This document shows positions 2,083 to 37,558 of a stretch of 37,558 bases of DNA, piece by piece. Source of the DNA: a virus (lineage: Duplodnaviria > Heunggongvirae > Uroviricota > Caudoviricetes); the IMG/VR virus record IMGVR_UViG_2698536484_000025; one strand, 5' to 3'. The notes under the pieces were generated by a model. The model was not told the origin of the DNA and searched no databases. It saw nothing but the letters and a program-made list of their open reading frames with translations. The position numbers and the translations under genes are program-made. Position 1 is the first letter of the stretch, and every line of letters starts with the position of its first letter.

Positions 2083-4091
2083 ATACCCAAAACGTCATGA
2101 GCTACACCTCGAGTGTCCCCCTTACAAGACACAGAACGTCTGGCAAAAAGATGTTCCACTCTGAAGCCACTGTCATGATAAAGCTCTCTGATGTTTGGCG
2201 CGCCACTGTTAGTAATGAGAACCTTTGCACCTCGACGATGAGCATCCGTCAACAGAGACACCAGGCGTTTTTGCTCTTCAAACTTAAAGTCATGACCGGA
2301 ATAGTTCGTGAATCCCTCTGTATTTGGAAGCGGTTCATACGGCGGATCGCAAAAGATGACATCTCCTTCTCCGGCAGCTTCAATCACCGCTGCAAAATCA
2401 CCGCATACAAACTCAGACCGCCCTTCCGCACCGAGGAAGGCTTCCATCTCCTGTAATGGGAAATACGGAGTTTTATACTTCCCATAACCGACATTGAACT
2501 CACCGGCCTGGTTGTAACGCGTCAATCCGTTAAAACAATGTCGGTTCAGGAACAAAAACGCCGCTGCGCGATGTAAATCATCATAGACTTGTTTGTTAAA
2601 CGCATTCCGTACTGCCAGGAATCCCTCCTGGGTGTTGTAGTCCTGGAAGAACCGATGTGCCAGAGTGATAAGTGAATGCGCCTCGCGTTGCAGAGTCTTG
2701 TAAAAGTTAATCAGGTCAGCATTCACATCATTTAGCAGATTTTCCTGGTATCCGGCATTCATGAAGACAGCTCCACCACCGACGAAAGGTTCAATCAGGC
2801 GCTTCCCTTCTGGCAAATAGCGAAAGATTTGTTCCAGAACACCAAATTTTCCACCAGCCCATTTGAATATGGACCGTTCGAATTCTGCCGCTGGTTTAAC
2901 TTTTCGCTCTTTTGTTTCACGCCCTTCATTCTGCCGACATGCAGCCTTGGTTATCCGCTCGCCAATCCAGCGCATTACTGGTATCGCCATACTATTGCCG
3001 ATCGCTTTGTAACGCGGTCCGTCAGCTGCAAGCATTGCAGCCTCTTCTTCGTTCAAATCAGGAGAGTTTTTGCGAAGGTATGCCAGTTCATCTGAAGAAA
3101 CTTTTTTACGCTTTTCCGTAGGGATCAATGTATGTCCATCAGGAAAACCTTGCAGCCTTTCACATTCGACAGGGGTAAGACGGCGCATTCTACCGTCGCC
3201 GAGCAATACAATTGGTGCTTCATGGTTACATGTCAAAGTTGGTGCCGAATTATCGGTTTTTATCTCAGCCCCTCCTTGCCCATGTGCCATGGCAACTATG
3301 TTTGTATCATCGCAAGATCTGATAGCGATGTCTGAAGTATATCTGGTAGTTTCCTTCCCCTCGCCTCTGCTCGGCGCAATATTCCGGCGCACGCCTTCGA
3401 ACTCAAAAAGTACCGTTGCGGGATCGAGGTCTGTTCGAGCACTTGCGACAACAAACACGCGTCGGCGTCGTTGTGCCACTCCGAAGTATTGGGCATCAAG
3501 GATTCTCCAGGCCACCTTTCGCTGCGGTCCATAAATACAACCACACTGCGGCCACTTTGGAACATGGCAACCGGTTTTGCCATCCCACCGCCAGAACGCG
3601 TTGCTTTTTCCTGATTCAGGTCGATCACCTGGTTCAAATGGCACATCTTCTCCAGCCAATCCAGCAAGGAAACATCCGAAGGCGTTATCTGCCGATGACA
3701 AGACTCCTGGGACATTTTCCCAGACGATAACGGCTGGTTTGAGAAATGACTCAGCCCGTTTGTCGTCAATTGCATTTGCAAGCTCCACATACTTTAAAGT
3801 TAGCGCGCCACGCTCATCATCAAGCCCACCACGTAATCCCGCGATACTGAATGCCTGACAAGGTGTTCCCCCGACGAGCACATCAGGGGATTCGATTTCC
3901 CCAGCCAGGACTTTTTTGGCAAGTTTTGTCATGTCGCCAAGGTTGGCGACATGGGGCCAGCGGTGCGCAAGAACGGCAGATGGAAAAGACTCGATTTCAG
4001 CAAACCACACCGGACGCATACCCAACGGTTCCCAGGCAATACTCGCGGCTTCAATTCCACTGCAAACAGATCCATAGCACAGCTCTTTCAC
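2073..4091 (-). CDS. dmt: bifunctional DNA methyltransferase: N-terminal C5-cytosine MTase fused to C-terminal Dam-like N6-adenine MTase
   Basis: 672-aa ORF. N-terminal half has C5-MTase motifs ([10 protein letters not shown] motif [16 protein letters not shown] motif IV, ENVPG motif [11 protein letters not shown] motif [17 protein letters not shown]). C-terminal half has Dam motifs FKWAGGK and DPPY. GTG start overlaps the hrdC stop (GTGA). Confidence 0.9.
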
Positions 4092-5358: not shown

Positions 5359-5439
5359 TTTGCAATAAGTAAACGCCACACAGACCACAAATAACCTAAG
5401 TTAAAATAACGAAAATCAGAGCAAATCATTGGTGATGAC

Positions 5440-5724
5440 GTGGCAAGTATTGCAACAAAAGACAGCATTTGTTCGGGGCACGGAGGATTCCCATCCAGGC
5501 CTCCCGTAGAGAGCGAACCACTACTTAAAGTCAACGGAGTCGAAGTGTTAGTTGATGGTAAGCAATATGCACAGCATACCGATGGGAACAGCACGCACGG
5601 CGGGCAAGCTATATCAACCAGGGCATGGTTTACCGTCAACGGGAAAGGGGTCGTATGCGTTGGTGATCCTGTTTCATGCGGCTCTACCGTTGCAGCCGGA
5701 GACGGCCTGGTTCAGGTAAGTTAG
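5440..5724 (+). CDS. small Gly/Cys-containing protein with PAAR-like repeats (P1 upfC position)
   Basis: 94 aa, GTG start. Motifs CSGHGG, VNGxxV, GDPVSCGST resemble PAAR-repeat proteins; assignment is by eye only. Confidence 0.55.
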   Translation: MASIATKDSICSGHGGFPSRPPVESEPLLKVNGVEVLVDGKQYAQHTDGNSTHGGQAISTRAWFTVNGKGVVCVGDPVSCGSTVAAGDGLVQVS

Positions 5725-5732
5725 GAGATATC

Positions 5733-6521
5733 ATGCTGGAAAAAGACTACCAGTTATCCGCATATAAAAAATTGGCCGCCGCCGGTGGGATGAAAACACC
5801 TGGTGCCATAACATCGGCACGAAACAGTGCTAACACAGCAAAACTGCTTGCAGAAGAATTGACCGGATTAATTCTGGATACAATTGTCTATCCCGACACT
5901 ATTACCAGCTATGTTTCAACGATCAGAACAACCGCAACCGGTTTAACGAATATTGGAGGGCTGGCAACTCAGCACGCGGACCTGTTGGCTGGTTATGCTG
6001 ATCTGTCAATGCTCCTTCAACTCGATATTGGTTGGGATGTTTACTGTCGTGCTAATGAGCGAGAAGTTTCAGAACTGCCGATCTCTATTGCCATTGGTGA
6101 TGTGACTATTACTAAATCGCTTGAGGACGCTGTAAACGAGCTTAATACATCAAGTTTAGTCGCTGCTATGGGGGAGATTAACCAGACCCTTAACACTGGC
6201 TCAGGAAGCTCGTCAGGCTCTGGTTCAGGCGGCGGCACTGCCACTCCCCCACCAGCACTAACAGAAGAGCAAATTGAATCTCTGAAAGTAGCAACTGAAC
6301 AGTTTGGGGTTGTTTTCAACCAGACAACAGCGCCCACAACTGCGTTACAACAGCAGTATGAACGAGCGAATGAAAGCGCCAACGTAGCCATAACTGCTTA
6401 TAACCATGCTATCGGTACCGCGCTTGCGGAAGCATCAGCAAATAAGGTCAGCACAGCCAGCGCAGTTGCCGCTTTGGTTCCTGATTCTGTTCTTGATGAA
6501 TTAAACAAAGCGGCACAGTAA
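5733..6521 (+). CDS. hypothetical protein with Gly/Ser-rich linker (P1 upfB position)
   Basis: ATG at 5733 with AGGAG 5 nt upstream. About 262 aa, contains GSGSSSGSGSGGG low-complexity linker; Ala/Thr-rich. Confidence 0.7.
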   Translation: MLEKDYQLSAYKKLAAAGGMKTPGAITSARNSANTAKLLAEELTGLILDTIVYPDTITSYVSTIRTTATGLTNIGGLATQHADLLAGYADLSMLLQLDIGWDVYCRANEREVSELPISIAIGDVTITKSLEDAVNELNTSSLVAAMGEINQTLNTGSGSSSGSGSGGGTATPPPALTEEQIESLKVATEQFGVVFNQTTAPTTALQQQYERANESANVAITAYNHAIGTALAEASANKVSTASAVAALVPDSVLDELNKAAQ

Positions 6522-6560
6522 CAAAGGACTTCATTGATAATTTTTCTTCAGGAGGAAGAC

Positions 6561-6983
6561 ATGTCATTCTTTTCTACGTTAAAAACAGCTTTGTCTTTGA
6601 AGGAGAAACTTGCTGCTACTGGTGTTCTTGTTCTGATTTGCGCACTTGTTGGTGCTGGGTTTGCATGGGAACGTCATCAGCTAAAGCAAGCCATGGAGAA
6701 AATTGGCAGTCTTGATCAGGCTGTTAAGGAACGTGATAAGTCAATAATGGATCTTAACCAGACCATTGAGACGATGAACAAAGCAGAGCAACATTTTCAC
6801 AGCCAGGAAGTGAAAAATGAATCAGAACAAGCCAAATATGCTGACAGGCAAATGGAACGAAAAGCTGAAGTTCAGAAACAACTGGTTGCGGCGGGTAATG
6901 TTCGCCAGCGCATTCCTGCTGACACTCAGCGGTTGCTCCGGGAGTCGATCAGCGAATTTAACGCCGACGCCGACAAAGGTTAA
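6561..6983 (+). CDS. N-terminal TM plus coiled-coil protein; candidate i-spanin (Rz-like) (P1 ppfA position)
   Basis: ATG 6561 with GGAGG 5 nt upstream. 140 aa: TM helix LAATGVLVLICALVGAGFAW followed by a charged coiled-coil region, the architecture of Rz-type inner-membrane spanins. Confidence 0.7.
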   Translation: MSFFSTLKTALSLKEKLAATGVLVLICALVGAGFAWERHQLKQAMEKIGSLDQAVKERDKSIMDLNQTIETMNKAEQHFHSQEVKNESEQAKYADRQMERKAEVQKQLVAAGNVRQRIPADTQRLLRESISEFNADADKG

Positions 6984-7149
6984 CCACCCTGCCCCCAAAA
7001 GTGCATTTATGTGCAGAATGCCAGAGTTTAGCAGTGAATATTTTGATGATCTGCCAGCGTATATCCTCGATACAGAAACGATGCTGAAGGGGATTAACAG
7101 GAAGAATCGCAACGTTAATGATTACAACCGTGCTATCAGCGGTAACTAA
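6817..7149 (+). CDS. lipoprotein with lipobox LSGC, overlapping the 3' end of the preceding gene in another frame; candidate o-spanin (P1 mlp position)
   Basis: ORF contains FASAFLLTLSGCSGS (lipobox L-S-G-C) followed by a Pro-rich segment. Possible starts ATG 6817 (SD GGAAG), 6838 or 6898; start uncertain. Confidence 0.6.
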   Translation: MNQNKPNMLTGKWNEKLKFRNNWLRRVMFASAFLLTLSGCSGSRSANLTPTPTKVNHPAPKSAFMCRMPEFSSEYFDDLPAYILDTETMLKGINRKNRNVNDYNRAISGN

Positions 7150-7160
7150 AAGGAAAAACT

Positions 7161-7520
7161 ATGTCCGATATGGAAATTGAAAAAGAGATTCTGGCCAAAG
7201 GCAAAACAGCACCACGCCTGACTCCTGATCACATCGAGAGTGTGATTGCCGAAGAGCATTATTTCACAGCTTTTGACGGCATTCGCGCTGCGCACGAAGG
7301 CGTTCGTGAGGTGCTGTCTGTTCATCCCTCTACGCGTAGCCTGACCATCTGTGTCTTGGTGCTGTGCAATGGATTCATTGTTACCGGGGAAAGCGCCTGT
7401 GCCAGCCCTGAAAATTTCGACGCGGAGATTAGCCGTAAGGTGGCCCGTAAGAACGCCATTGAGAAAATCTGGCCGCTGGAAGGTTATCTGCTGAAGCAAA
7501 AGCTCAGCGAGCAGATTTAA
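7161..7520 (+). CDS. hypothetical protein
   Basis: 119 aa; ATG 7161 with AAGGAAAA upstream. No recognisable domain by eye. Confidence 0.65.
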   Translation: MSDMEIEKEILAKGKTAPRLTPDHIESVIAEEHYFTAFDGIRAAHEGVREVLSVHPSTRSLTICVLVLCNGFIVTGESACASPENFDAEISRKVARKNAIEKIWPLEGYLLKQKLSEQI

Positions 7521-7590
7521 TCAACTGTAGAAATCGTAATATCAACACTCATGACTTTACTTTGGCAGGAAGCCACTAAGGACAAACAAC

Positions 7591-7992
7591 ATGTTTGCGG
7601 TTAAACAAGAAATAAACAACGCTACTTCTTTGTTCGAAATTGAGAGTATTACCGTTGGATATCCTGGGTCAGATCAATTTAAACAGGCGTTCGAGATTGC
7701 TGAAGAACTGGGTATCAAAACGCCTGATGCGATTGAATATATCCCTGTTGCGTACGAAGATGAGGAGATGACAAAGGCAATCGGGGAAGAGCAAACTTTG
7801 AGTACAGAGCGTAAGGATGTACAGCGGGATGACTGTATCGCCGTGATTTGCTCTGGGGTTGCTTCTGAAATGTTCCCCGACCTCCCTGCCATAGGAGGTG
7901 TTGGTTATCAATTCCTCTACAAAGGTGATACGTTACGCATCTATACAAGTAGTTTGTTGATCGAAGAAGTAGGTACGGAAAACGACAACTAA
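7591..7992 (+). CDS. hypothetical acidic protein
   Basis: 133 aa; ATG 7591 with AAGGA upstream; acidic. Confidence 0.65.
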   Translation: MFAVKQEINNATSLFEIESITVGYPGSDQFKQAFEIAEELGIKTPDAIEYIPVAYEDEEMTKAIGEEQTLSTERKDVQRDDCIAVICSGVASEMFPDLPAIGGVGYQFLYKGDTLRIYTSSLLIEEVGTENDN

Positions 7993-17515: not shown

Positions 17516-17540
17516 AAAGCTCCTTCGGGAGCTTTTTTTA
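17516..17540 (+). terminator. rho-independent terminator
   Basis: AAGCTCC-TTCG-GGAGCTT stem with tetraloop, followed by TTTTTTT; immediately after the 16987-17496 gene. Confidence 0.85.
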
Positions 17541-17565
17541 TAACTATTTTATATAAGAATGCATC

Positions 17566-17589
17566 GATAACATTGTCTTGAGTTTTATG
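17566..17589 (+). promoter_or_regulatory. candidate late promoter: GATAACATTGTC box, 6 nt, then TTTTAT hexamer
   Basis: Same box-spacer-hexamer architecture as 12102 and 24393. Confidence 0.35.
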
Positions 17590-17667
17590 TTAGATTATTA
17601 ATGTTCTAATAAACTACAATTATTGAGGTAGATGTTTGTGCCTGTACTGTTAAAGGGGGACTCTAAA

Positions 17668-18264
17668 ATGGCTGTGATTCCAATGTCGTACTCCCCGGGT
17701 ACTGTCGCTCGTCGATTTTCGATCCTGGACGGAGTTACCATCCAGGGTGTGCTTTACCAGGTTATATGGGATTCCAAAACCCCATTTGCAGCTGTAATAG
17801 AGGCTGCGCCTTCTGTTATCGATGGTGATATGCGCCATAAGGTTGTCGCTACTCTTGAACTTCAACGTCGCCCGCAGCTTGAAGGCGTACTGGTAAGGAA
17901 GTTCTGGGAGGATAGCGATGTTGCCCAGATTGAAGGTATCGTGGTTGATGGAACCGTCCGGGATGTCGGTTTAGCTACTTTTGTTTACGAAACCGTAGCC
18001 TCAAAAGCTGGTGTTGTTTTGCTCAGTGATAATGAGCAATACGAAGGTGGAAAAGCTCTTTGGCAACACATCGCCCGTCGCTCTTCCGAGCTAAAAGTGT
18101 TTATCCTCGACACCGATGCCGCTCAGTATTACCCGTTTGACGGCGAACGTGTTTGCTATGACGGGGTAAGTATTCCTGAATCCGAGATATGGAGTGAACA
18201 CCCAGATCGAAGTAAGCATGGGGTTGTTCTGGTCGCTGAATCCATAATTGGAAAGGCGGCATAG
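17668..18264 (+). CDS. hypothetical protein
   Basis: ATG 17668 with AAGGGGGA 7 nt upstream (track ORF starts at 17632, too close to its SD). About 198 aa, no clear domain. Confidence 0.65.
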   Translation: MAVIPMSYSPGTVARRFSILDGVTIQGVLYQVIWDSKTPFAAVIEAAPSVIDGDMRHKVVATLELQRRPQLEGVLVRKFWEDSDVAQIEGIVVDGTVRDVGLATFVYETVASKAGVVLLSDNEQYEGGKALWQHIARRSSELKVFILDTDAAQYYPFDGERVCYDGVSIPESEIWSEHPDRSKHGVVLVAESIIGKAA

Positions 18265-18446
18265 CAGTAAAAAATTCCTTGCTCCTAAAAAGGGGAGAGG
18301 GCTAATCTACGTATGCTAAGCATAGATATGGCCTCAGATTAATGTTAAGCGTCTTGCAGGACGCGTAATGTTATCTGGGGCTTTCTTCTATCTGCTTGTC
18401 GGGTAATGCCTGAAGCAGATAGCCTCAAGCACCCGCAGCGATTGTA

Positions 18447-18692
18447 TCAATGTCTGGCTTTTTTTCTATAGAAATCACCTGGAAGGGTGAATATCCACAT
18501 CAGAAGAAATGTTGCAGCAAACATGATCCCTAATGGCCAGACCGCGCCAAAGAAAATCCATACTAAGATCTCCTCTGCTCGTTCTTTGCGGTCGATATCG
18601 ACAAGCATTTTTCGGCTGATCATGTATACACAGAAGCCAATACAAACATATCCTGCAAAAGCGATCGCTAACTGTAAAAAATCAGATTGCAT
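18447..18692 (-). CDS. small two-TM membrane protein downstream of repL
   Basis: Preferred start ATG 18692 with GAGGtcGGAG upstream; 81 aa with two hydrophobic helices (FLQLAIAFAGYVCIGFCVYMI; ILVWIFFGAVWPLGIMFAATFLLMWIF). Confidence 0.5.
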   Translation of the reverse strand: MQSDFLQLAIAFAGYVCIGFCVYMISRKMLVDIDRKERAEEILVWIFFGAVWPLGIMFAATFLLMWIFTLPGDFYRKKARH

Positions 18693-18742
18693 CTCCGACC
18701 TCAAACTGAAAACGCCAGGTGACTCCAGATTAGAGCAATCTA

Positions 18743-21620: not shown

Positions 21621-21838
21621 AAACCCCCCTGAACGTCGGCAGAGAAGGGGAGGCTCCAGTAACTAAGTGAATTGCGCGAGTTAGTTGAAAAACGGGCAGT
21701 AAAAATGCAGGGGCCATCAGGCAATTGAGAGCGTGCTTCGTCTTCTGTTGCTGCGATAACGAAGTGATAGTGGTGTTTTTGGCAGGAGTAAAAGCGCCAG
21801 ATAAATTCAGGATGAGTAGGGGTAGGGATAGTAGCCAC
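21617..21838 (-). CDS. icd: Icd-like small protein (interference with cell division), translationally coupled to ant
   Basis: 73 aa; GTG start at 21838 with AAGGAGG 9 nt upstream; stop overlaps ant start. Confidence 0.7.
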   Translation of the reverse strand: MATIPTPTHPEFIWRFYSCQKHHYHFVIAATEDEARSQLPDGPCIFTARFSTNSRNSLSYWSLPFSADVQGGL

Positions 21839-21895
21839 AATGGCAGCCTCCTTTTGCTAATTTAAGGAGCTACCGCGTGAGGTTCCAATCTCAAT

Positions 21896-21976
21896 GGCGG
21901 TAGCACTGACTGGGTTGGAACTACCGGCGCAAAAGGGAACCGGCCTGCCTTTCGGCAGCCCAGCCAGCACTACCAT
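21896..21976 (-). ncRNA. c4: c4 antisense RNA (immI regulator); boundaries approximate
   Basis: Minus-strand segment between direct repeats a1b1 (plus 22053-22080) and a2b2 (plus 21850-21890). It carries CCCUUUUGC and GUUCCAACC, complementary to the GCAAAAGG and GAUUGGAAC elements, and folds into stems (CUGCC-GAAA-GGCAG; CCGG...CCGG). Confidence 0.5.
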
Positions 21977-22022
21977 TGATCTCGGAGCTATGTGCTACGT
22001 ATGGTTGTGCGATGGCATGACA

Positions 22023-22046
22023 CAAAAAAAGACGCTTTTGGCGTCT
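22023..22046 (-). terminator. hairpin plus U7 on the minus strand inside the immI leader (attenuator or terminator-like)
   Basis: Minus strand GACGCC-AAAA-GCGTC followed by TTTTTTT; lies between the a1b1 repeat and c4. Confidence 0.4.
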
Positions 22047-22173
22047 ATGTCGCCTTTTGCATTATCCGGGGTTCCAATCCCGGCATCCGTTTTACTAAGA
22101 TGCCTGTTTAGGATAAACCGAAAATGCATTAGCACGCAAGCAAGTTAATGTAGCATATGAAGCTAAAAAAATA

Positions 22174-22190
22174 AAATAATTAGAGCAACT
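22174..22190 (-). promoter_or_regulatory. C1 operator-like site (14/17), candidate immI operator (Op51-type)
   Basis: Plus strand aaaataattagagcaac; core ATTAGAGCAA conserved. Lies between immI and the divergent AT-rich island. Confidence 0.5.
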
Positions 22191-22335
22191 TGCAACCATG
22201 TAAATTATTTCTCTGGTAACTAAAATGTATGAGTTTAATTGATATGGGTCAAAGATTTTGACCATTGCATGGTGAAACTTTATGCTACAAAATGTTATTT
22301 TAAGGCGTTTTATCTGTGGCAGGAGATAGTTAATC

Positions 22336-22686
22336 ATGTCATCTGAACATGTTCGTAAAGGTGTAACAAATGCGAAATTCAATGAAGAGCAATCTAATAT
22401 TCTCTTTATTGAAATAGGAATTCTGTCAATACTGATAGGTTTAATGTCTAAATCATGGTGGGCCTTTGGCGGTTCTTTTCTTGGACTGATTTTTAGTTTA
22501 AGAATAAAATTTCTAGCAATACCATTGATGATTGTATTTAGCTTAGTATGGGGAGCTATTGGCTATAGTATTGGTACTTTGTTTGAATCAACAGCAGCAA
22601 GTATTGTTTTGGGGGTAATTGCTTTCCTGAGTGGTTTGGGTACTCATTTTGCTGCCGTGCAATGGGCAAATGATATTGCAGAATAA
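22336..22686 (+). CDS. small multi-pass membrane protein (AT-rich island gene 1)
   Basis: 116 aa; ATG 22336 with AGGAGA 9 nt upstream; three to four hydrophobic helices (ILFIEIGILSILIGLM; FLGLIFSLRIKFLAIPLMIVFSLVWGAIGYSIG; IVLGVIAFLSGLG). Confidence 0.75.
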   Translation: MSSEHVRKGVTNAKFNEEQSNILFIEIGILSILIGLMSKSWWAFGGSFLGLIFSLRIKFLAIPLMIVFSLVWGAIGYSIGTLFESTAASIVLGVIAFLSGLGTHFAAVQWANDIAE

Positions 22687-22708
22687 TTACAGATAAGAAG
22701 CGAAAAGA

Positions 22709-23185
22709 ATGAATATGAGATGGTTTTTATTATTTGTATCGTTAGTTTCAGCAGGAACATTTGCAAAAATTGATCCTCTACAATGGAATGTAATTGAAGA
22801 GAGAGGGGGGAGAGAATATACAATCCATAATCATAATGGTGATAAGATAAGTTTTTTATGTGATATGGGATTCATGTATGGTTCACCAGATAGTGCAGGT
22901 AGTTTAGGCTTGTTGCTAAGTTCGTCGAATAATAAAAAAGAGTATAATGCTGACAAGAATAAAATAGTATTAACTATAGATGGTGATCAATATCCTTTTA
23001 GCAATCTTGGATCAATGGTTGGAGATTCTTGGTGGTATGCCTTTTGGCAAGATGCAGCAGATTCAAATGCTAATATGATTGATGCTTATGTTGATAATGA
23101 AAAAATTGCTACATTCCCTCTTTCTGGGCTAAGTAAGTTGTATCAACAAGCCAAAATGGATGGATGTATTAAACGAGGCAAATGA
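22709..23185 (+). CDS. secreted or periplasmic protein with signal peptide (AT-rich island gene 2)
   Basis: 158 aa; N-terminus MNMRWFLLFVSLVSAGTFA-KIDP resembles a Sec signal peptide with an AxA-like cleavage site; Trp/Asp-rich C-terminal part. Confidence 0.75.
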   Translation: MNMRWFLLFVSLVSAGTFAKIDPLQWNVIEERGGREYTIHNHNGDKISFLCDMGFMYGSPDSAGSLGLLLSSSNNKKEYNADKNKIVLTIDGDQYPFSNLGSMVGDSWWYAFWQDAADSNANMIDAYVDNEKIATFPLSGLSKLYQQAKMDGCIKRGK

Positions 23186-23259
23186 TCTTTCTGTGTTAAA
23201 GATTAACGCAATCAATAAAACATTGGTTGCGTAATATTCTATTATATAAATGGAATAAT

Positions 23260-24294
23260 ATGACAAAAATTACTAATTCTAATGAGTTGAAGTTGCTGTA
23301 TAAACAGTCAGTGCTCATTCCATCATACAAAGATCACGTAGCGATCTTGCAAAAACAATTAGGAATAGAAAAACATTCTTTTCAAAATATGCCAAGATTG
23401 AATAGACAAGCTGTAATTAGTAACTCTCTTCGAAAACAATTGGCTAGTATACCGAACTTGGCTGGAATAGGCAGCAAGTATCGTGAACATATCGCGATTT
23501 TACAGAAACAGACTCAGGCTCTTTTCCCTCATGATGCAAATAGATATATTCAAATGCTAAGGAAACAGGCCGAAATAGCTATGCCATTACGAAAACAGCT
23601 TGAGGTGCTTAATAAGCAAGCTGGTTTAAATAACATGCAAGCGATACTTAAAGAATTACAACAAAGTGCAAGTTATAAAATAGATGTAAGCCAAGACATA
23701 AAGAAAGTACTAGATCACTATGCTAGAACAAGAAATGCTTCATTACATCAAATAATAGAGCAGGGGATTTCATCTATTGCGCAGGCTTATGCTGAAGGTG
23801 CTACTGAAACATCACACACCAAAAGTAATGTTCAAAATAAAGGATTAAATAAACCTAGCTCAAAGTTTGTTGATTCATTTAAAGAGCTTCCTTATCCACT
23901 GCAATGGTTACTAATGGTTATATTTTCTCAAGTTGTGTTTGGTGCTTTTATTGATTACGGAAAAGAGAAAACCTTGCTGGGAATACACAAGGCAGAATCA
24001 TATTTTATATCTCTGTTTGAGGATAAACCAATATCAAAACAACAATTAATTAAAGAAAACAAAGAAATTAGTTGGGAAGATCTCAATGGTTTTCGTTTTA
24101 TAACTGGTGAGAACGTAAGATTACACGTCAGTCCTTCTATAAATAGTGAGGTGATTGAATGCATTGGCAAAAATACTATAGTGGCTGTTTTAGATAAAAA
24201 AGATCGCCAATGGCTTTTCGTGCAGGTTAAATCAGGGGACGAGTTTATTACTGGATGGATTACACGAACATACACAAAGCCTCTTAAGGCTTGA
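23260..24294 (+). CDS. membrane protein: N-terminal K/Q-rich repeats, one TM helix, C-terminal SH3b-like domain (AT-rich island gene 3)
   Basis: ATG 23260 (track ORF starts at TTG 23227). Repeats HVAILQKQ / EHIAILQKQ / LRKQAEIAMPLRKQLEVLNKQ; TM LPYPLQWLLMVIFSQVVFGAFIDYG; C-terminus FRFITGENVRLHVSPSINSEVIECIGKNTIVAVLDKKDRQWLFVQVKSGDEFITGWITRTY is SH3b-like. Confidence 0.75.
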   Translation: MTKITNSNELKLLYKQSVLIPSYKDHVAILQKQLGIEKHSFQNMPRLNRQAVISNSLRKQLASIPNLAGIGSKYREHIAILQKQTQALFPHDANRYIQMLRKQAEIAMPLRKQLEVLNKQAGLNNMQAILKELQQSASYKIDVSQDIKKVLDHYARTRNASLHQIIEQGISSIAQAYAEGATETSHTKSNVQNKGLNKPSSKFVDSFKELPYPLQWLLMVIFSQVVFGAFIDYGKEKTLLGIHKAESYFISLFEDKPISKQQLIKENKEISWEDLNGFRFITGENVRLHVSPSINSEVIECIGKNTIVAVLDKKDRQWLFVQVKSGDEFITGWITRTYTKPLKA

Positions 24295-24392
24295 ATTTTA
24301 TCACCGTATCTTGGGGCTGGGTGTTGATGACGATGTGCTACTTGAAGTACTTGGGTTTTTTAACGCAGCATCTGAAATGTGTAGACTGACCG

Positions 24393-24416
24393 GTAACAAA
24401 TGACAACTCGTAGAAT
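24393..24416 (+). promoter_or_regulatory. candidate late promoter: GTAACAAATGAC box, 6 nt, then TAGAAT hexamer, overlapping an 11-bp perfect palindrome
   Basis: Same architecture as 12102 and 17566. Palindrome ctcgtagaatc (24406-24416) / gattctacgag (24430-24440) overlaps the -10-like hexamer. Confidence 0.4.
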
Positions 24417-33182: not shown

Positions 33183-36101
33183 ATGAATGACGTTACAGTT
33201 GTCACATCGGTTACTTACCCATCACCCGAGTCGTTGGCTCTGGTGGCTGATGTGCAATACCACGAACCATATCTGTCAGCCGCGCTAAACCGAAAATTCA
33301 GGGGGATTGTTGACCCGGGATTTTATGCCGGTTTCTTACCTAAGCCTGGCGGTGGAATGAACCTGTTAATCACCTCAGTGGATGGTGATAAAACCGCAGG
33401 CGCGGCGTCGGTGGATATTGGTGAATTCTACCAGGTAACTATTCAGCAACGTAAGGATATTTCTCTTGCACTTAGTGCAGGCAAGAAATATGTAATTGTG
33501 CTGAAGGGAAGATATCTCCTTGGAGAAGATACCTATCAGGTGAATACCGCGTCACATATTCATGCGGCTGAATTTGTTGCCAGAACCTATACCGATTCAT
33601 ATCAGTTAGGAGATGGGGAGCTGCTTGTTTGTACGGTGAATATCCCTGCTGGTGTATCAGCCATTACCCAGGAGATGATTGATACATCCGAGCGTATTAA
33701 CCGCACGATCGGCATTGATATTTCAGACTCTGTAACCAGTAGCAGAAGTGATGTTGCTGCAAGTTCGCTGGCAGTTAAAAAAGCCTACGATCTGGCGAAA
33801 AGCAAGTATACGGCGCAGGATGCAAGCACAACGCAAAAGGGATTAGTTCAGCTCAGTAGCGAAACTAACAGCGACAGCGAAACAATGGCGGCTACCCCTA
33901 AAGCTGTTAAGTCTGTAAAAGATCTTGCTGATACCAAAGCGCCAATAGAAAGCCCGAGTCTGACAGGAACGCCAAGCGCGCCGACGGCAGCGCAAGGTAC
34001 AAACAGCACGCAGATAGCAAATACAGCCTTTGTTAAGGCAGCTATAACTGCACTTATCAACGGTGCGCCTGGCACACTGGATACGCTGAAAGAAATAGCG
34101 GCTGCGATCAATAACGACCCGAATTTCAGCACAACTATCAACAATGCTCTGGCTCTTAAAGCTCCTTTAGCAAGTCCTGCATTAACGGGAATACCTACTG
34201 CGCCTACCGCTGCACAGGGTACGAATAACACGCAGATTGCTACGACCGCTTATGTAAGAGCTGCCATATCCGCATTGGTTGGTTCATCACCAGAAGCTCT
34301 TGATACCCTGAATGAGCTTGCCGCAGCACTTGGTAATGACCCGAACTTTGCGACAACAATGACAAATGCGCTGGCAGGCAAACAGCCTCTGGATGCAACT
34401 TTAACCGCGCTTGCTGCCCTTGCGACTGGTGCAAACAAACTGCCTTATTTCACTGGTAAGGATACGGTAGCGCAGACTGATTTAACGTCAGTCGGTCGCG
34501 ATATTCTGGCCAAAACAAGCGTCCTTGCTGTTATCCAATACCTTGGTTTAAGAGAACTTGGTACCAGCGGTGAAAAGATCCCCCTGTTGAGTACGGCTAA
34601 CACATGGAGTGCGCGCCAGACTTTCAACGGCGGGATCACCGGGGCGCTGACAGGGAACGCCGACACCGCGACGAAATTAAAAACAGCCAGAAACATTAAT
34701 GGCGTCAGATTCGATGGTTCGGCTGACATTAATATCAATACTCTGGTATCGCGTGGTCGCGTAACGGCACTGGGGGCGAATGCACAGGGGACATCCGGGA
34801 TTCAGCTGTATGAGGCATACAACAATGGCTACCCTTCCCCCTATGGCAATGTGCTTCACCTTAAAGGTGCCACCGCTGCTGGCGAAGGTGAGTTATTCAT
34901 TGGCTGGAGTGGCACGAGCGGTGACCATGCGCCCGTACATATCCGTTCGCGGCGTGATACTGATTCTGCCAACTGGTCTGAATGGGCACAGGTCTATACG
35001 TCAAAAGATTCCGTTCCCGGCGTTAATGCCAAAGGGAATCAGGATACCTCTGGTAATGCGGCTACAGCGACTAAATTGCAGACAGCACGTACTATTAACG
35101 GTGTCTCGTTTGATGGTTCTAAAAACATTGAGTTAACGGCGGAAGATTTAAATCTTGAGCAAACCGTAGAATTAGCCGCTGGATCATTGCAGAAAAACCA
35201 GAACGGCGCGGATATTCCTGGAAAAGATACCTTCACTAAAAATATTGGTGCATGTCGCGCTTTTCACAGTTCTATTAGTACAGGTGCAGGGAACTGGACA
35301 ACGGCACAATTGATTGAATGGCTGGATTCTCAAGGGGCATTCAATCACCCATACTGGATGTGCAAATGTTCATGGTCATACGGCAATAATAAAATTATAA
35401 CCGATACTGGCTGTGGAACTATTCATCTTGCAGGTTGCGTTATTGAGGTTATGGGTAATAAAGGTGCCATGACCATCCGTGTAACAACGCCAAGCACTTC
35501 CACCGGTGGCGGAACCACTAATGCGCAATTTACTTATATAAACCACGGTGGAGATTACGCACCAGGCTGGCGGCGTGACTACAGTACCAAAAATCAGCAG
35601 CCTGCATTTGCTTTAGGGCAGACAGGAAGCACTGTTGGAAATGACAAAGCTGTTGGATGGAACTCAATTAGTGGCGTTTATAATGCGACTATTGGTGGAG
35701 CATCAACATTGATTCTTCACTTTAATATGAATGCGGGGAGTTGCCCTGCTGTTCAGTTCCGTGTGAATTATAAAAATGGCGGTATTTTTTATCGTTCAGC
35801 GCGAGATGGTTACGGATTCGAAGCTGACTGGTCAGAATTCTACACCACAACACGTAAGCCATCAGCGGGAGATGTTGGTGCATATACCAAAGCAGAATGT
35901 AATTCACGATTTATTACAGGTATTCGATTAGGTACAAAATCGTCAGTGCAAACATGGAATGGTCCTGGTTGGAACGATAAATCTGGTTATGTTGTTACTG
36001 CCTCAATCAACTCAAATAAGGACGAACTTATTGATACAACTCAGGCAAGACCTGTGCAGTATTGTATCAATGGCACTTGGTATAACGCGGGAAGTATTTA
36101 A
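33183..36101 (+). CDS. S: tail fibre protein S (constant part Sc, then variable part Sv inside the invertible segment)
   Basis: About 972 aa from ATG 33183; tandem Ala/Thr-rich repeats; phage tail-fibre repeat motifs ([19 protein letters not shown]; [19 protein letters not shown]); C-terminus [11 protein letters not shown] parallels the inverted Sv' C-terminus [11 protein letters not shown]. Confidence 0.85.
33937..34380 (+). repeat. two tandem copies of an in-frame 222-bp (74-aa) repeat within the tail fibre gene
   Basis: [74 protein letters not shown] and [74 protein letters not shown]. Confidence 0.8.
34531..34556. other. cixL-like crossover site for a Cin/Gin/Hin-family DNA invertase
   Basis: ttatccaataccttggtttaagagaa closely resembles the 26-bp gix/hix/cix sites (TTATCCAAAACCTCGGTTTACAGGAA-type, recalled), with dyad around the central TT; lies in frame inside S. 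Confidence 0.6.
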
Positions 36102-36664: not shown

Positions 36665-37192
36665 TTACTCTGGTTTTTGTGGCCATTCTGGCTTTGCCGT
36701 ATCCACGCGGCTGACCAGAACGCTGTAGCGTTCCCAGGCTTCCAGTCGTGTACGTTCCTCATCTGTTGCCATATTCAGCCTGACAGCGCGCTCCAGTGGC
36801 TGAATAACGCTTTCCGCTTCGGAAAGTAACGCGGCCTTTTGTGATTCGGCCTGTTGTTGCTGTTCTTCTGCCGTATAAATCCGTTTAACCACAGCTCCGT
36901 CCTTAAACATCCACTTACCGGAATCATCGGCCCGACGATTGGCTGTTATATCGGGGACTTCAACAACGCTAAAGCCTTCAGGATTAAGTGTGGAGGCATC
37001 TTTAGTGATGGCTACAATAATATTATTTTCATCGTAAACAATCTTTATTGTGTCTGGCTGAAAATTCTTTACCTCTTCATACCAGTTCTTCCCGTCTTCA
37101 GAGTAAAGCCAGATAACTCCGTGCTTCTTTGTTAACTCATACTGCTCCGGTGTTTTAGCATTACCAATTTTTATGTTCTTTAAGTGGATCAT
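36665..37192 (-). CDS. alternative tail fibre assembly chaperone U' (inverted orientation)
   Basis: 175 aa; [40 protein letters not shown] is clearly paralogous to U. Confidence 0.85.
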
Positions 37193-37193
37193 A

Positions 37194-37558
37194 TTAAACG
37201 CTCGCTACATTATACCAGGTGCCATTTATATACTTTTGAACGGGTCTGTAATAAACGCCAGCTATATTATCGGCAGAATTTGACCCTGTATCCTGAACAT
37301 TTATACCAGACAATACATGACCTGAAGGGCACTGGAAGTTCCATGTTTGCCAGTTGTTCACACCATAATATTGCTGTGAGCCAAGCCGAACATCTTTCAC
37401 ATATCGGGAATCAATGTTACCCCAGTTGCTTGGTTGTATCTGACCGTTTACAGCAAATATCACCGAGTTATCTGTATTTCGCTGACTATAGAAATGCCAG
37501 CCTGAATCATCACCAAGCTCTGCAACAGTTGGTCTTGACGAATTTCCCCACAAGTTAA
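37194..37558 (-). CDS. alternative tail fibre C-terminal segment Sv' (3' part only; ORF runs off the window)
   Basis: C-terminus [12 protein letters not shown] parallels Sv; open at the window end. Confidence 0.75.

Follow-up and report, generated by a model that had tools for sequence, protein, structure and literature searches.

We found that two overlapping genes in a 37,558-nt stretch of viral DNA (the window) are the already catalogued ppfA and mlp genes of a P1-like phage-plasmid, and we conclude, with a probability of about 85%, that they encode a two-component spanin of the overlapped type formed by LysB and LysC of phage P2. As a predicted two-part spanin, the pair would act in host lysis. 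An earlier note on this DNA had taken the genes for an i-spanin/o-spanin pair in overlapped arrangement, at a distance from any lysis cassette. The coordinates it gave for the two + strand open reading frames proved exact (Table 1), and its reading agrees with the way the P1 orthologues are catalogued as well as with profile matches, homology to LysC and the selection analysis described below.

In reverse complement, the window matches about 33-70 kb of P1. DNA identity is 98-99.7% to records of P1, P7 and other Punavirus members, in which the pair is called ppfA/mlp, 'Rz-like spanin' or Rz/Rz1, and the RefSeq name for mlp is 'Rz-like spanin'. PpfA is 99.3% identical to P1 PpfA, with one of 140 residues differing (M45 for I45), and Mlp is about 97% identical to its P1 counterpart, with three of 110 residues differing. 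Point substitutions are the sole differences within the pair: P1 has the same 167-nt +1 overlap, lipobox, 39-residue signal and placement relative to repA. The pair belongs to the SpaninDB family 'P1', being nearly identical to gp064/gp063 with upfC and upfB upstream and repA downstream. Kongari et al. 2018 (Table S1) list P1 gp064 as 'OIS' and gp063 as 'OOS' with the architecture 'ovl', that is, an overlapped i-spanin/o-spanin. Bednarek et al. 2022 credit the identification of the P1 spanin pair to Summer et al. 2007, note that its operon is unlinked to the remaining P1 lysis genes, and describe it as experimentally unverified.

Table 1. Features of the ppfA/mlp locus, in positions of the window
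Feature	Position	Strand	Basis or remark
Late-promoter pattern match AAATAACCT-aagt-TAAAAT	5389..5407	+	exact to relaxed pattern, 33 nt upstream of upfC
upfC (PAAR-like)	5440-5724	+	upstream of ppfA
upfB	5676-6521	+	upstream of ppfA
Putative Lpa-dependent late promoter aacAAAGGACTTcattGATAAT	6523..6541	+	one mismatch to relaxed pattern; degenerate here
ppfA Shine-Dalgarno AGGAGG	6550..6555	+	read from sequence
ppfA, predicted i-spanin, 140 aa	6561..6983	+	ATG start, ORF list and translation, phrog_89
Codons of PpfA transmembrane segment, about residues 17-35 (LAATGVLVLICALVGAGFA)	6609..6665	+	hydropathy
mlp Shine-Dalgarno AGGAAG	6805..6810	+	built from PpfA codons Q82-E83-V84
mlp, predicted o-spanin precursor, 110 aa	6817..7149	+	+1 frame relative to ppfA, ORF list, phrog_30284
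Dual-coding overlap, 167 nt (PpfA residues 86-140 / Mlp residues 1-56)	6817..6983	+	frames
Lipobox L-S-G-C, Mlp residues 37-40	6925..6936	+	regex match
Mlp Cys66 codon	7012..7014	+	sole periplasmic Cys of the pair; invariant in alignment A2

We assessed both proteins with the spanin criteria of Summer et al. 2007 and Kongari et al. 2018. PpfA has the form these criteria expect of an i-spanin, a type II protein with a single transmembrane helix and a helical, coiled-coil periplasmic part. Its top 19-residue Kyte-Doolittle window begins at residue 17 with a mean of 2.35, and K8, K14 and K16 lie ahead of this hydrophobic stretch, so that an N-in/C-out orientation fits. There is one membrane helix behind a short cytoplasmic N-terminus; Kongari et al. 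2018 (Table S1) give the N-terminal part of the P1 i-spanin as 36 residues, with 'one [Cys] in TMD', and PpfA has no Cys outside the transmembrane helix. The periplasmic part is 36% charged and its heptad score is highest over about residues 38-90. AlphaFold2 (mean pLDDT 71) models residues 13-110 as one helix and residues 120-139 as another, with a break over 111-119 between them, so that the periplasmic domain is helix-linker-helix. Hydropathy, heptad score and structural model all agree with the N-terminal transmembrane helix and periplasmic coiled coil that had been proposed for the first gene. The best PHROG match of PpfA is phrog_89, 'Rz-like spanin' (E = 1.2e-25). A Pfam search with PpfA gave only weak coiled-coil noise, with nothing at E <= 0.1. 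The sequence TCAGGAGG at the ppfA Shine-Dalgarno site is kept in all six loci compared.

The 110 residues of Mlp are predicted to divide into a signal peptide of 39 and a mature lipoprotein of 71. The LSGC lipobox reported earlier for the second gene was recovered by pattern matching, and Kongari et al. 2018 (Table S1) place LipoP cleavage of the P1 o-spanin at position 39, with no Prosite hit. By this pattern test Mlp has the features of a signal peptidase II substrate expected of an o-spanin: Cys40 is the predicted lipidated first mature residue, and the residue at +2 is Ser rather than Asp, which predicts sorting to the outer membrane. The lipobox Cys is invariant in alignment A2, and the box reads LNAC or LNGC in two relatives. 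The mature part had also been called Pro-rich; it does contain some proline, but the content is modest, at six of 71 residues (8.5%), with TPTPTKVNHPAP accounting for four of the six, and resembles that of P2-type LysC rather than that of lambda-type Rz1. Mlp Cys66, whose counterpart when Mlp is aligned with P2 LysC is the Cys of KVSLCPMP, provides the periplasmic Cys found, at least once in either subunit, in 507 two-component spanins out of the 528 in the catalogue of Kongari et al. 2018. Spanins generally depend on a homotypic disulfide, and Cys66 is a candidate for this role. Mlp had no Pfam match, and its best PHROG is phrog_30284, 'Rz-like spanin' (E = 2.8e-55).

A signal peptide of 39 residues, counted from the conserved ATG, is unusually long, and Kongari et al. 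2018 remark on a 'too long signal sequence' in the P1 o-spanin. We considered shorter starts at ATG 6898 and TTG 6886, which would bring the signal peptide to 12-16 residues, within the canonical range. ATG 6898 is not conserved; at the position of TTG 6886 four relatives have ATG, whereas JK004 has an Arg codon. We took the start as 6817 because the upstream Shine-Dalgarno sequence and ATG are conserved in all relatives: CAGGAGG, followed by ATG 8-9 nt further on, is kept in all five divergent loci, and the conserved ATG is made from differing PpfA codons across these loci. The gene may have dual starts.

Upstream of ppfA are upfC and upfB, and the order upfC-upfB-ppfA-mlp on one strand is kept in loci L003 and L007-L010. 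We detected no + strand terminator-like site before 7880, and upfC and upfB are probably co-transcribed with ppfA and mlp. Just 3' of the mlp stop codon, P1 upfA is replaced by two other open reading frames, as in phage vB_EcoM-813R1. A putative late promoter ends 19 nt ahead of the ppfA ATG (Table 1). The box carries no annotation in NC_005856, and at the same ppfA-proximal position each of five divergent loci has an exact match to the pattern, the only match in that locus. There are three exact matches in the window, two of them at the P1-annotated LP23 and LPs; the third, upstream of upfC, is a possible operon promoter in this lineage. Late expression of ppfA and mlp is suggested by these pattern matches. 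A sigma-70 scan of the + strand ahead of ppfA gave nothing convincing, and the P1 record has two predicted sigma-70 promoters, P1ppfA and P2ppfA, before the gene. The P1vir transcriptome paper does not mention ppfA or mlp.

The earlier note had further held that the window contains no holin or endolysin, and our searches bear this out. Neither occurs among the P1 genes that match the window. Of the sequence with no P1 match, the scan covered 17539-18728, 21812-24394 and the two open reading frames at 7161-7992, and no PHROG lysis family was found there; the shorter unmatched stretches outside the scan are 1-258, 888-1053, 35169-35318 and 37103-37558. The sole muralytic domain in the window is that of the structural transglycosylase Sit. 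We considered upl/plp (window about 417-1029) as a second spanin-like pair and rejected it, as the translations do not show a convincing combination of transmembrane helix and lipobox. The lysis genes of P1 are scattered across several operons, and the separation of ppfA/mlp from lyz and lydAB is a previously described peculiarity of this phage.

As had been proposed, mlp starts inside the 3' part of ppfA in a different frame. Its start is 256 nt into ppfA, its frame is +1, and it runs on for 166 nt beyond the stop codon of ppfA, so the two lie in the overlapped arrangement of adjacent two-component spanin genes. An alternative is that only ppfA is a real gene and that gene callers rightly ignore an accidental lipoprotein frame. 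Most automatic annotations do omit or truncate mlp: ON470617 and OP279344 carry no mlp CDS, the calls in L007-L010 are 46-52-aa fragments or nothing, and full-length entries in the protein collection searched are few. Such under-calling is, however, a documented artefact for overlapped o-spanin genes, and we examined selection in five divergent P1-like loci with PpfA identities of 59-64%. At this distance none of the five loci has lost the open +1 frame, and the lipid-anchor Cys, Cys66, the Shine-Dalgarno sequence and the ATG are all kept. In the part that is mlp only, dN/dS is 0.087 in the mlp frame, while the two alternative frames give about 1.9-2.3; it is 0.18 in the part that is ppfA only, and off-frames overall give 1.2-2.3. 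Within the overlap the ppfA frame is constrained (dN/dS 0.23, with dS halved to 0.52) and the mlp frame, which is mostly signal peptide there, varies freely. The two overlapping frames are thus both genuinely coding; each is under purifying selection, which is strong in the lipoprotein frame. Given an open +1 frame in five relatives and a low dN/dS beyond ppfA, the pair is more than chance, and the selection test, to which the homology of Mlp to LysC can be added, effectively refutes an accidental frame.

The remaining alternatives accept both genes and place their function outside lysis. The pair might be an envelope module serving superinfection exclusion, lysogenic conversion or fitness in the plasmid state, as Bor, Cor and Llp do among prophage lipoproteins, with sigma-70 promoters driving it in the lysogen. 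Its neighbours are genes for replication and partition of the plasmid, lyz and lydAB being far away, and the two sigma-70 promoters predicted ahead of it in the P1 record would suit such a role. Both genes, moreover, are among a set of 21 extremely conserved genes in 54 P1-like phage-plasmids, elements mostly seen as prophages, and both are dispensable for plaques: CRISPRi knock-down gave plating efficiencies of 1.3 and 1.2 for ppfA and of 0.24 and 0.19 for mlp, each scored non-essential for plaque formation in a study that scored lambda Rz essential. A further point against the spanin reading, from Bednarek et al. 2022, is that Lyz, LydA and LydB alone suffice to lyse E. coli in shaken culture. 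Against an envelope module stand the homology of Mlp to LysC, which is a lysis lipoprotein, and the spanin families that are the best family matches of both proteins. An exclusion lipoprotein would need neither an overlapped second gene nor a type II coiled-coil partner, which together are a spanin signature. The late-promoter-like boxes at the same position in divergent relatives and the neighbouring upfC, whose PAAR-like product is presumably part of the virion, also speak against a non-lysis envelope module, which we regard as unlikely. We consider it still more improbable that the pair acts with UpfC and UpfB in virion assembly or in DNA injection across the envelope. The gene order, which is shared by all relatives examined and uninterrupted by a + strand terminator-like site, would fit such a role, but neither protein is marked as a virion component, anchoring by a transmembrane helix and a lipid is unfit for a tail-tip protein, and homology points to LysB/LysC. 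P2 lysB/lysC, too, lie directly upstream of tail genes, so a place beside structural genes is nothing unusual for a spanin of this type.

We therefore favor a two-component spanin. By analogy with lambda Rz/Rz1, PpfA would remain anchored in the inner membrane and Mlp would be lipidated and sent to the outer membrane. The two would join through their C-terminal parts into a bridge that spans the periplasm and is threaded through the peptidoglycan. At the end of infection the spanin would break the outer membrane, removing the last barrier to phage release. Transcription would occur late and independently of a lysis cassette, starting at the sites in the upfC-upfB-ppfA-mlp unit that resemble Lpa-dependent promoters. 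Tentatively, we propose a more specific version in which one or two Lpa-dependent late promoters that have so far gone unannotated drive the spanin of the P1 lineage, in a unit that starts with a PAAR-like tail-spike protein, and in which the o-spanin is made with a conserved, long and basic 39-residue signal peptide, its start codon and ribosome-binding site being embedded in conserved PpfA codons. If the first part of this proposal is true, the supply of spanin would be tied to virion morphogenesis and not to the expression of holin and endolysin; if the second is true, maturation of Mlp might be slowed or timed.

The observation made in the earlier note is correct but ordinary, because P1 is known for the odd distance of this pair from its remaining lysis genes, and it has little significance past confirmation. 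The pair is already in a published spanin catalogue and in RefSeq. Two points are of modest value. The selection test shows the overlapped lipoprotein frame to be coding, although mlp is dropped or truncated in many automatic annotations of P1-like plasmids, and the promoter-like boxes offer a testable reason for late expression of an 'orphan' spanin operon.

We compared the pair with known spanins. A tblastn search against phages and a word-indexed protein search returned only P1-like elements, at identities of at least 59%, and a PDB sequence search with the family profiles gave nothing meaningful. The separated spanin of T4, PseT.3/PseT.2, resembles PpfA/Mlp in that the periplasmic part of the i-spanin is Cys-free and disulfide capacity resides in the o-spanin only, and PseT.2 is comparatively long, as is Mlp. 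The T4 spanin genes are also unlinked to the holin and endolysin genes. They differ from ppfA/mlp in being non-overlapping, PseT.2 has two essential Cys where Mlp has one, and we saw no sequence relationship between the two systems.

Lambda Rz/Rz1 has a similar design, with a type II coiled-coil protein of the inner membrane and an outer-membrane lipoprotein encoded in the +1 frame. Rz1, however, is fully embedded in Rz and has 40 mature residues with far more proline (26% in Rz1 of the lambda-like KS5, against 8.5% in mature Mlp), whereas mlp is overlapped but not embedded. Rz has two periplasmic Cys and PpfA none, and Rz/Rz1 stand at the end of the S-R-Rz lysis cassette whereas ppfA/mlp lie outside any such cassette. 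The pair does not group with the lambda type: there was no Pfam Rz/Rz1 match at E <= 0.1, PpfA gave E = 0.26 against Rz by BLASTP, and the lambda families phrog_13 and phrog_3198 are absent from its PHROG matches.

P2 LysB/LysC is the prototype overlapped spanin, and PpfA/Mlp is of its type. Some features differ. In P2 a single cassette has holin Y, endolysin K and LysA immediately ahead of the pair, whereas here there is no holin or endolysin within 37 kb; LysB has two Cys in its C-terminal tail whereas PpfA has no periplasmic Cys; and the signal peptide of LysC is about 20 residues long compared with 39 in Mlp. PpfA showed no significant similarity to LysB or lambda Rz by BLASTP, nor did its family to LysB by hhalign, so its link to i-spanins rests on the PHROG profile and on architecture; LysB has the same best PHROG as PpfA, phrog_89 (5.8e-61), and NCBIfam TIGR03495 phage_LysB was the top hit of PpfA at 19.0 bits (E = 0.0013), far below the cut-off of 92.75. 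Mlp matched LysC by BLASTP (E = 4e-8) and by hhalign (probability 92.6%). It also matches the LysC family phrog_456 (E = 3.7e-5), and LysC matches phrog_30284 (E = 5e-4). The top NCBIfam hit of Mlp, NF038368 P2_Rz1, scored 14.9 bits (E = 0.023) against a cut-off of 27. Homology is thus supported and the curated cut-off is missed by a wide margin, making Mlp a distant relative of LysC and not an equivalog member. The two homologous lipoproteins have a periplasmic Cys in common, and their mature parts are similar in size and in proline content (about 9.5% in P2-type LysC). In both systems the start of the o-spanin gene lies within the i-spanin gene, in the +1 frame, and the o-spanin gene continues beyond the i-spanin stop codon, and both pairs adjoin structural genes.

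Megablast searches with the pair region and with the whole window placed this DNA among the P1-like phage-plasmids (Punavirus), where its reverse complement corresponds, with about 97-98% identity, to P1 (NC_005856) at about 33-70 kb. The overlapping genes are P1 ppfA (gp064) and mlp (gp063), with one residue substituted in PpfA and three in Mlp. RefSeq names mlp 'Rz-like spanin', and the pair goes by Rz/Rz1 in several P1-like records. Table S1 of Kongari et al. 2018 (PMC6139136) enters P1 as 'ovl', with gp064 as i-spanin and gp063 as o-spanin in their own family 'P1', a periplasmic Cys count of one for the o-spanin and zero for the i-spanin, and the remarks 'Too long signal sequence' and 'LipoP server finds cleavage site at 39th position'. 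Bednarek et al. 2022 trace the identification, as a predicted function, to Summer et al. 2007 and describe the two genes as an operon unlinked to the remaining P1 lysis genes; their o- and i- labels are swapped, the sequence identifying PpfA as the i-spanin and Mlp as the o-spanin. In a survey of P1-like phage-plasmids 21 genes are classed as extremely conserved, mlp and ppfA included, and the neighbouring repA-upfA stretch is classed as variable. Given these descriptions, the spanin pair and its separation from the lysis cassette are already known, and interest is low. Only three points are mildly new: quantitative proof of coding in the overlapped frame, conservation of the Shine-Dalgarno and ATG that start the long Mlp precursor, and the late-promoter candidates.

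PpfA is hydrophobic over about residues 17-35 (Kyte-Doolittle 2.35 for the best 19-residue window), with lysines in front of this segment, and its C-terminal part is rich in charged residues (36% D/E/K/R). Its translated sequence contains no cysteine beyond the membrane helix. A simple heptad score is highest over about residues 38-90, and an AlphaFold2 model built from a 20-sequence alignment (mean pLDDT 71) shows residues 13-110 as a continuous helix and 120-139 as another, separated by a break at 111-119 (AAGNVRQRIP), supporting the transmembrane helix and coiled coil that an earlier note had described. mlp overlaps ppfA by 167 nt and extends 166 nt beyond its stop. Mlp has a long signal peptide, an LSGC lipobox that occupies residues 37-40, and Ser in the +2 position; the 71-residue mature part has one further cysteine and six prolines, four of them inside TPTPTKVNHPAP. 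The ORFs, transmembrane segment and lipobox thus make the earlier description accurate, including the second gene in another frame, with 'Pro-rich' only moderately true.

Features of the ppfA/mlp region (window coordinates unless a locus is named)
Feature	Position	Strand	Details
Late-promoter-like site	5389-5407	+	AAATAACCTaagtTAAAAT; exact relaxed match, 33 nt before upfC
upfC, PAAR-like	5440-5724		phrog_281, E = 3e-30; Pfam PAAR_motif 26.1 bits, just under cut-off 27
upfB	5676-6521		annotated start overlaps annotated upfC 3' end by 49 nt
Late-promoter-like site	6523-6541		aacAAAGGACTTcattGATAAT; one mismatch to relaxed pattern, ends 19 nt before ppfA ATG
ppfA Shine-Dalgarno	6550-6555	+	AGGAGG, strong; read from sequence
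ppfA	6561-6983	+	ATG start, 140 residues; ORF list and sequence
mlp	6817-7149	+	+1 frame relative to ppfA, 110 residues
ORF	7161-7520		119 aa; Pfam Phage_gp49_66, E = 3e-32
ORF	7591-7992		133 aa; phrog_1453, unknown function
Lpa box and -10 before ppfA, L003	3964-3982		well-formed
Lpa box and -10 before ppfA, L007-L010	2964-2982		well-formed; L008, for example, gagAAGTGACTTaccgGAGAAT

The P1 genes that match the window begin with the tail-fibre genes, continue with sit, sim, c4/ant, repL, genes 21-23, par and repA, and end with dmt; lyz, lydD/E, lydA/B and lydC are situated elsewhere in P1. No holin or endolysin was found among the matching genes or in the main stretches without a P1 match (no PHROG lysis family), and to that extent their reported absence from the window holds. 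Two such stretches, 17539-18728 and 21812-24394, sit at the positions of P1's rlfA/rlfB-pmgF and sim/c4 regions and gave no megablast match to P1; they correspond to the published variable regions 4 and 5, and all PHROGs matched by their ORFs (phrog_7522, 3772, 15014, 3429 and 7086) are of unknown function. Where the P1 annotation has tRNA-Asn and tRNA-Thr, the window carries three tRNA genes at 1154-1402 on the minus strand (Thr-TGT, Tyr-GTA, Arg-TCT), so the tRNA set of this element differs from that of P1. Directly after the mlp stop the window leaves P1 (7154-8026), with upfA replaced by two ORFs, as also in phage vB_EcoM-813R1; this segment matches the published repA-upfA variable region. 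The vB_EcoM-813R1 record places the upfB start later, equivalent to window 5733.

For comparison we used five divergent P1-like loci (PpfA identity 59-64%): Cronobacter phage JK004 (L003) and four contigs (L007-L010) that come from other samples and include at least one of Klebsiella aerogenes. All share RdgC and uhr leftward and PAAR-like upfC, upfB, ppfA, a Gp49-family gene or nothing, and repA rightward; the Gp49-family gene follows the pair in L007, L009 and L010, and L008 has no gene at this place.

Seven annotated P1 late promoters (Lpa, late-promoter activator, box plus -10) gave the pattern (a/g)ac-AAGTNACTT-N4-TANAAT, which we relaxed to AWRTNACYT-N5-ANAAT. Two of its three exact matches in the window fall at the places of the P1-annotated LP23 (12107) and LPs (32688), and the third precedes upfC, where P1 NC_005856 reads AAATAATCT and has no late-promoter annotation; the P1 record here has only two predicted sigma-70 promoters. 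Each of the five divergent loci has a single exact match, counting both strands, and it lies 18-19 nt upstream of the ppfA start codon; the spacer bases around it are not conserved. This ppfA-proximal site is degenerate in P1 and the window (AAAGGACTT), suggesting that the P1 branch may have lost this promoter or shifted it to the upfC position. No terminator-like site was found on the plus strand before 7880. The sites suggest that upfC-upfB-ppfA-mlp may be transcribed as a late, Lpa-dependent unit.

A Shine-Dalgarno-like CAGGAGG followed by ATG precedes mlp in all loci (AGGAAG at 6805-6810 in the window) and is formed by the invariant PpfA codons Q82-E83. The two lineages form the ATG out of different pairs of PpfA codons, an argument that the start codon itself is under selection. 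ATG 6898 was rejected because it is not conserved among relatives, and TTG 6886 is ATG in four relatives but Arg in JK004; the start was kept at 6817, and there may be an extra downstream start.

In all five divergent loci the +1 frame is open for about 110 codons and encodes a hydrophobic stretch, a lipobox-position Cys (in LSAC, LNAC or LNGC) and a mature part that is highly conserved. The lipobox of L008 and of L009 (about 3360-3380, mlp frame) has Asn at -2, outside the usual Prosite set; the rest of these lipoproteins is highly conserved. Nei-Gojobori dN/dS estimates over all pairs, for the ppfA, mlp (+1) and third frames respectively, were 0.18, 1.19 and 1.63 in the ppfA-only region, 0.23, 1.86 and 1.87 in the overlap, and 1.87, 0.087 and 2.35 in the mlp-only region. 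Constraint in the overlap is carried by the ppfA frame, with its dS halved (0.52 vs 1.10), and the mlp frame there, encoding mostly the signal peptide n-region, varies freely. mlp is absent or shortened to 44-52 codons in many automatic annotations (ON470617, OP279344, MZ188976, L007-L010), gene calls for it in the divergent contigs being either missing or pieces of 46-52 residues, full-length Mlp entries are few in a large protein collection, and the closest record, vB_EcoM-813R1 (99.7%), lacks any mlp annotation; such under-annotation of overlapped o-spanin genes was described by Kongari et al. 2018 (PMC6139136). That the lipoprotein frame is spurious is nevertheless effectively refuted by the selection test and deserves almost no credence; the frame is genuinely coding.

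We put the probability that the pair is a functional spanin at about 85%. Both membrane-anchor features, the helix-linker-helix domain, the conserved periplasmic Cys in Mlp, the constraint on both frames and the Mlp-LysC homology are observed; with the P1 listing and the phrog_89 and phrog_30284 matches, they support the overlapped i-/o-spanin reading of the earlier note. If the pair works as lambda Rz/Rz1 does, inner-membrane PpfA would join across the periplasm, through the C-terminal regions of both proteins, with lipidated Mlp of the outer membrane, which is probably dimerised by a Cys66 disulfide; after Lyz, under LydA/LydB control, had removed the peptidoglycan, PpfA-Mlp complexes would fuse both membranes. 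In a genome-wide CRISPRi study ppfA and mlp were non-essential for plaques (plating efficiency 1.3 and 1.2 for ppfA, 0.24 and 0.19 for mlp). This phenotype does not contradict a spanin, and culture conditions affect spanin phenotypes (Bednarek et al. 2022). A non-lytic envelope function for the pair is improbable, and action with its neighbours UpfC and UpfB in injection or assembly more improbable still. The observation is confirmed and its interpretation as a spanin supported.

PpfA matched phrog_89 ('Rz-like spanin') over nearly its full length (E = 1.2e-25), the best PHROG of P2 LysB (E = 5.8e-61). Mlp matched phrog_30284 (E = 2.8e-55) and LysC's family phrog_456 (E = 3.7e-5), and LysC matched phrog_30284 (E = 5e-4). 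Mlp aligned directly with P2 LysC (BLASTP, 37% identity over 68 residues, E = 4e-8; hhalign of the Mlp family, probability 92.6%) across the signal peptide, lipid-anchor Cys and second Cys. Pfam and PDB searches with the pair found nothing, and no significant direct similarity of PpfA to LysB or lambda Rz was found. The top NCBIfam matches, phage_LysB for PpfA (19 bits, cut-off 92.75) and P2_Rz1 for Mlp (14.9 bits, cut-off 27), fall far under their curated cut-offs, and the pair lies outside the curated LysB/LysC equivalogs. From these comparisons, ppfA/mlp is a distant relative of P2 LysB/LysC, with the same overlapped layout and a LysC-like size and proline content in Mlp, and it has no sequence relation to lambda Rz/Rz1.
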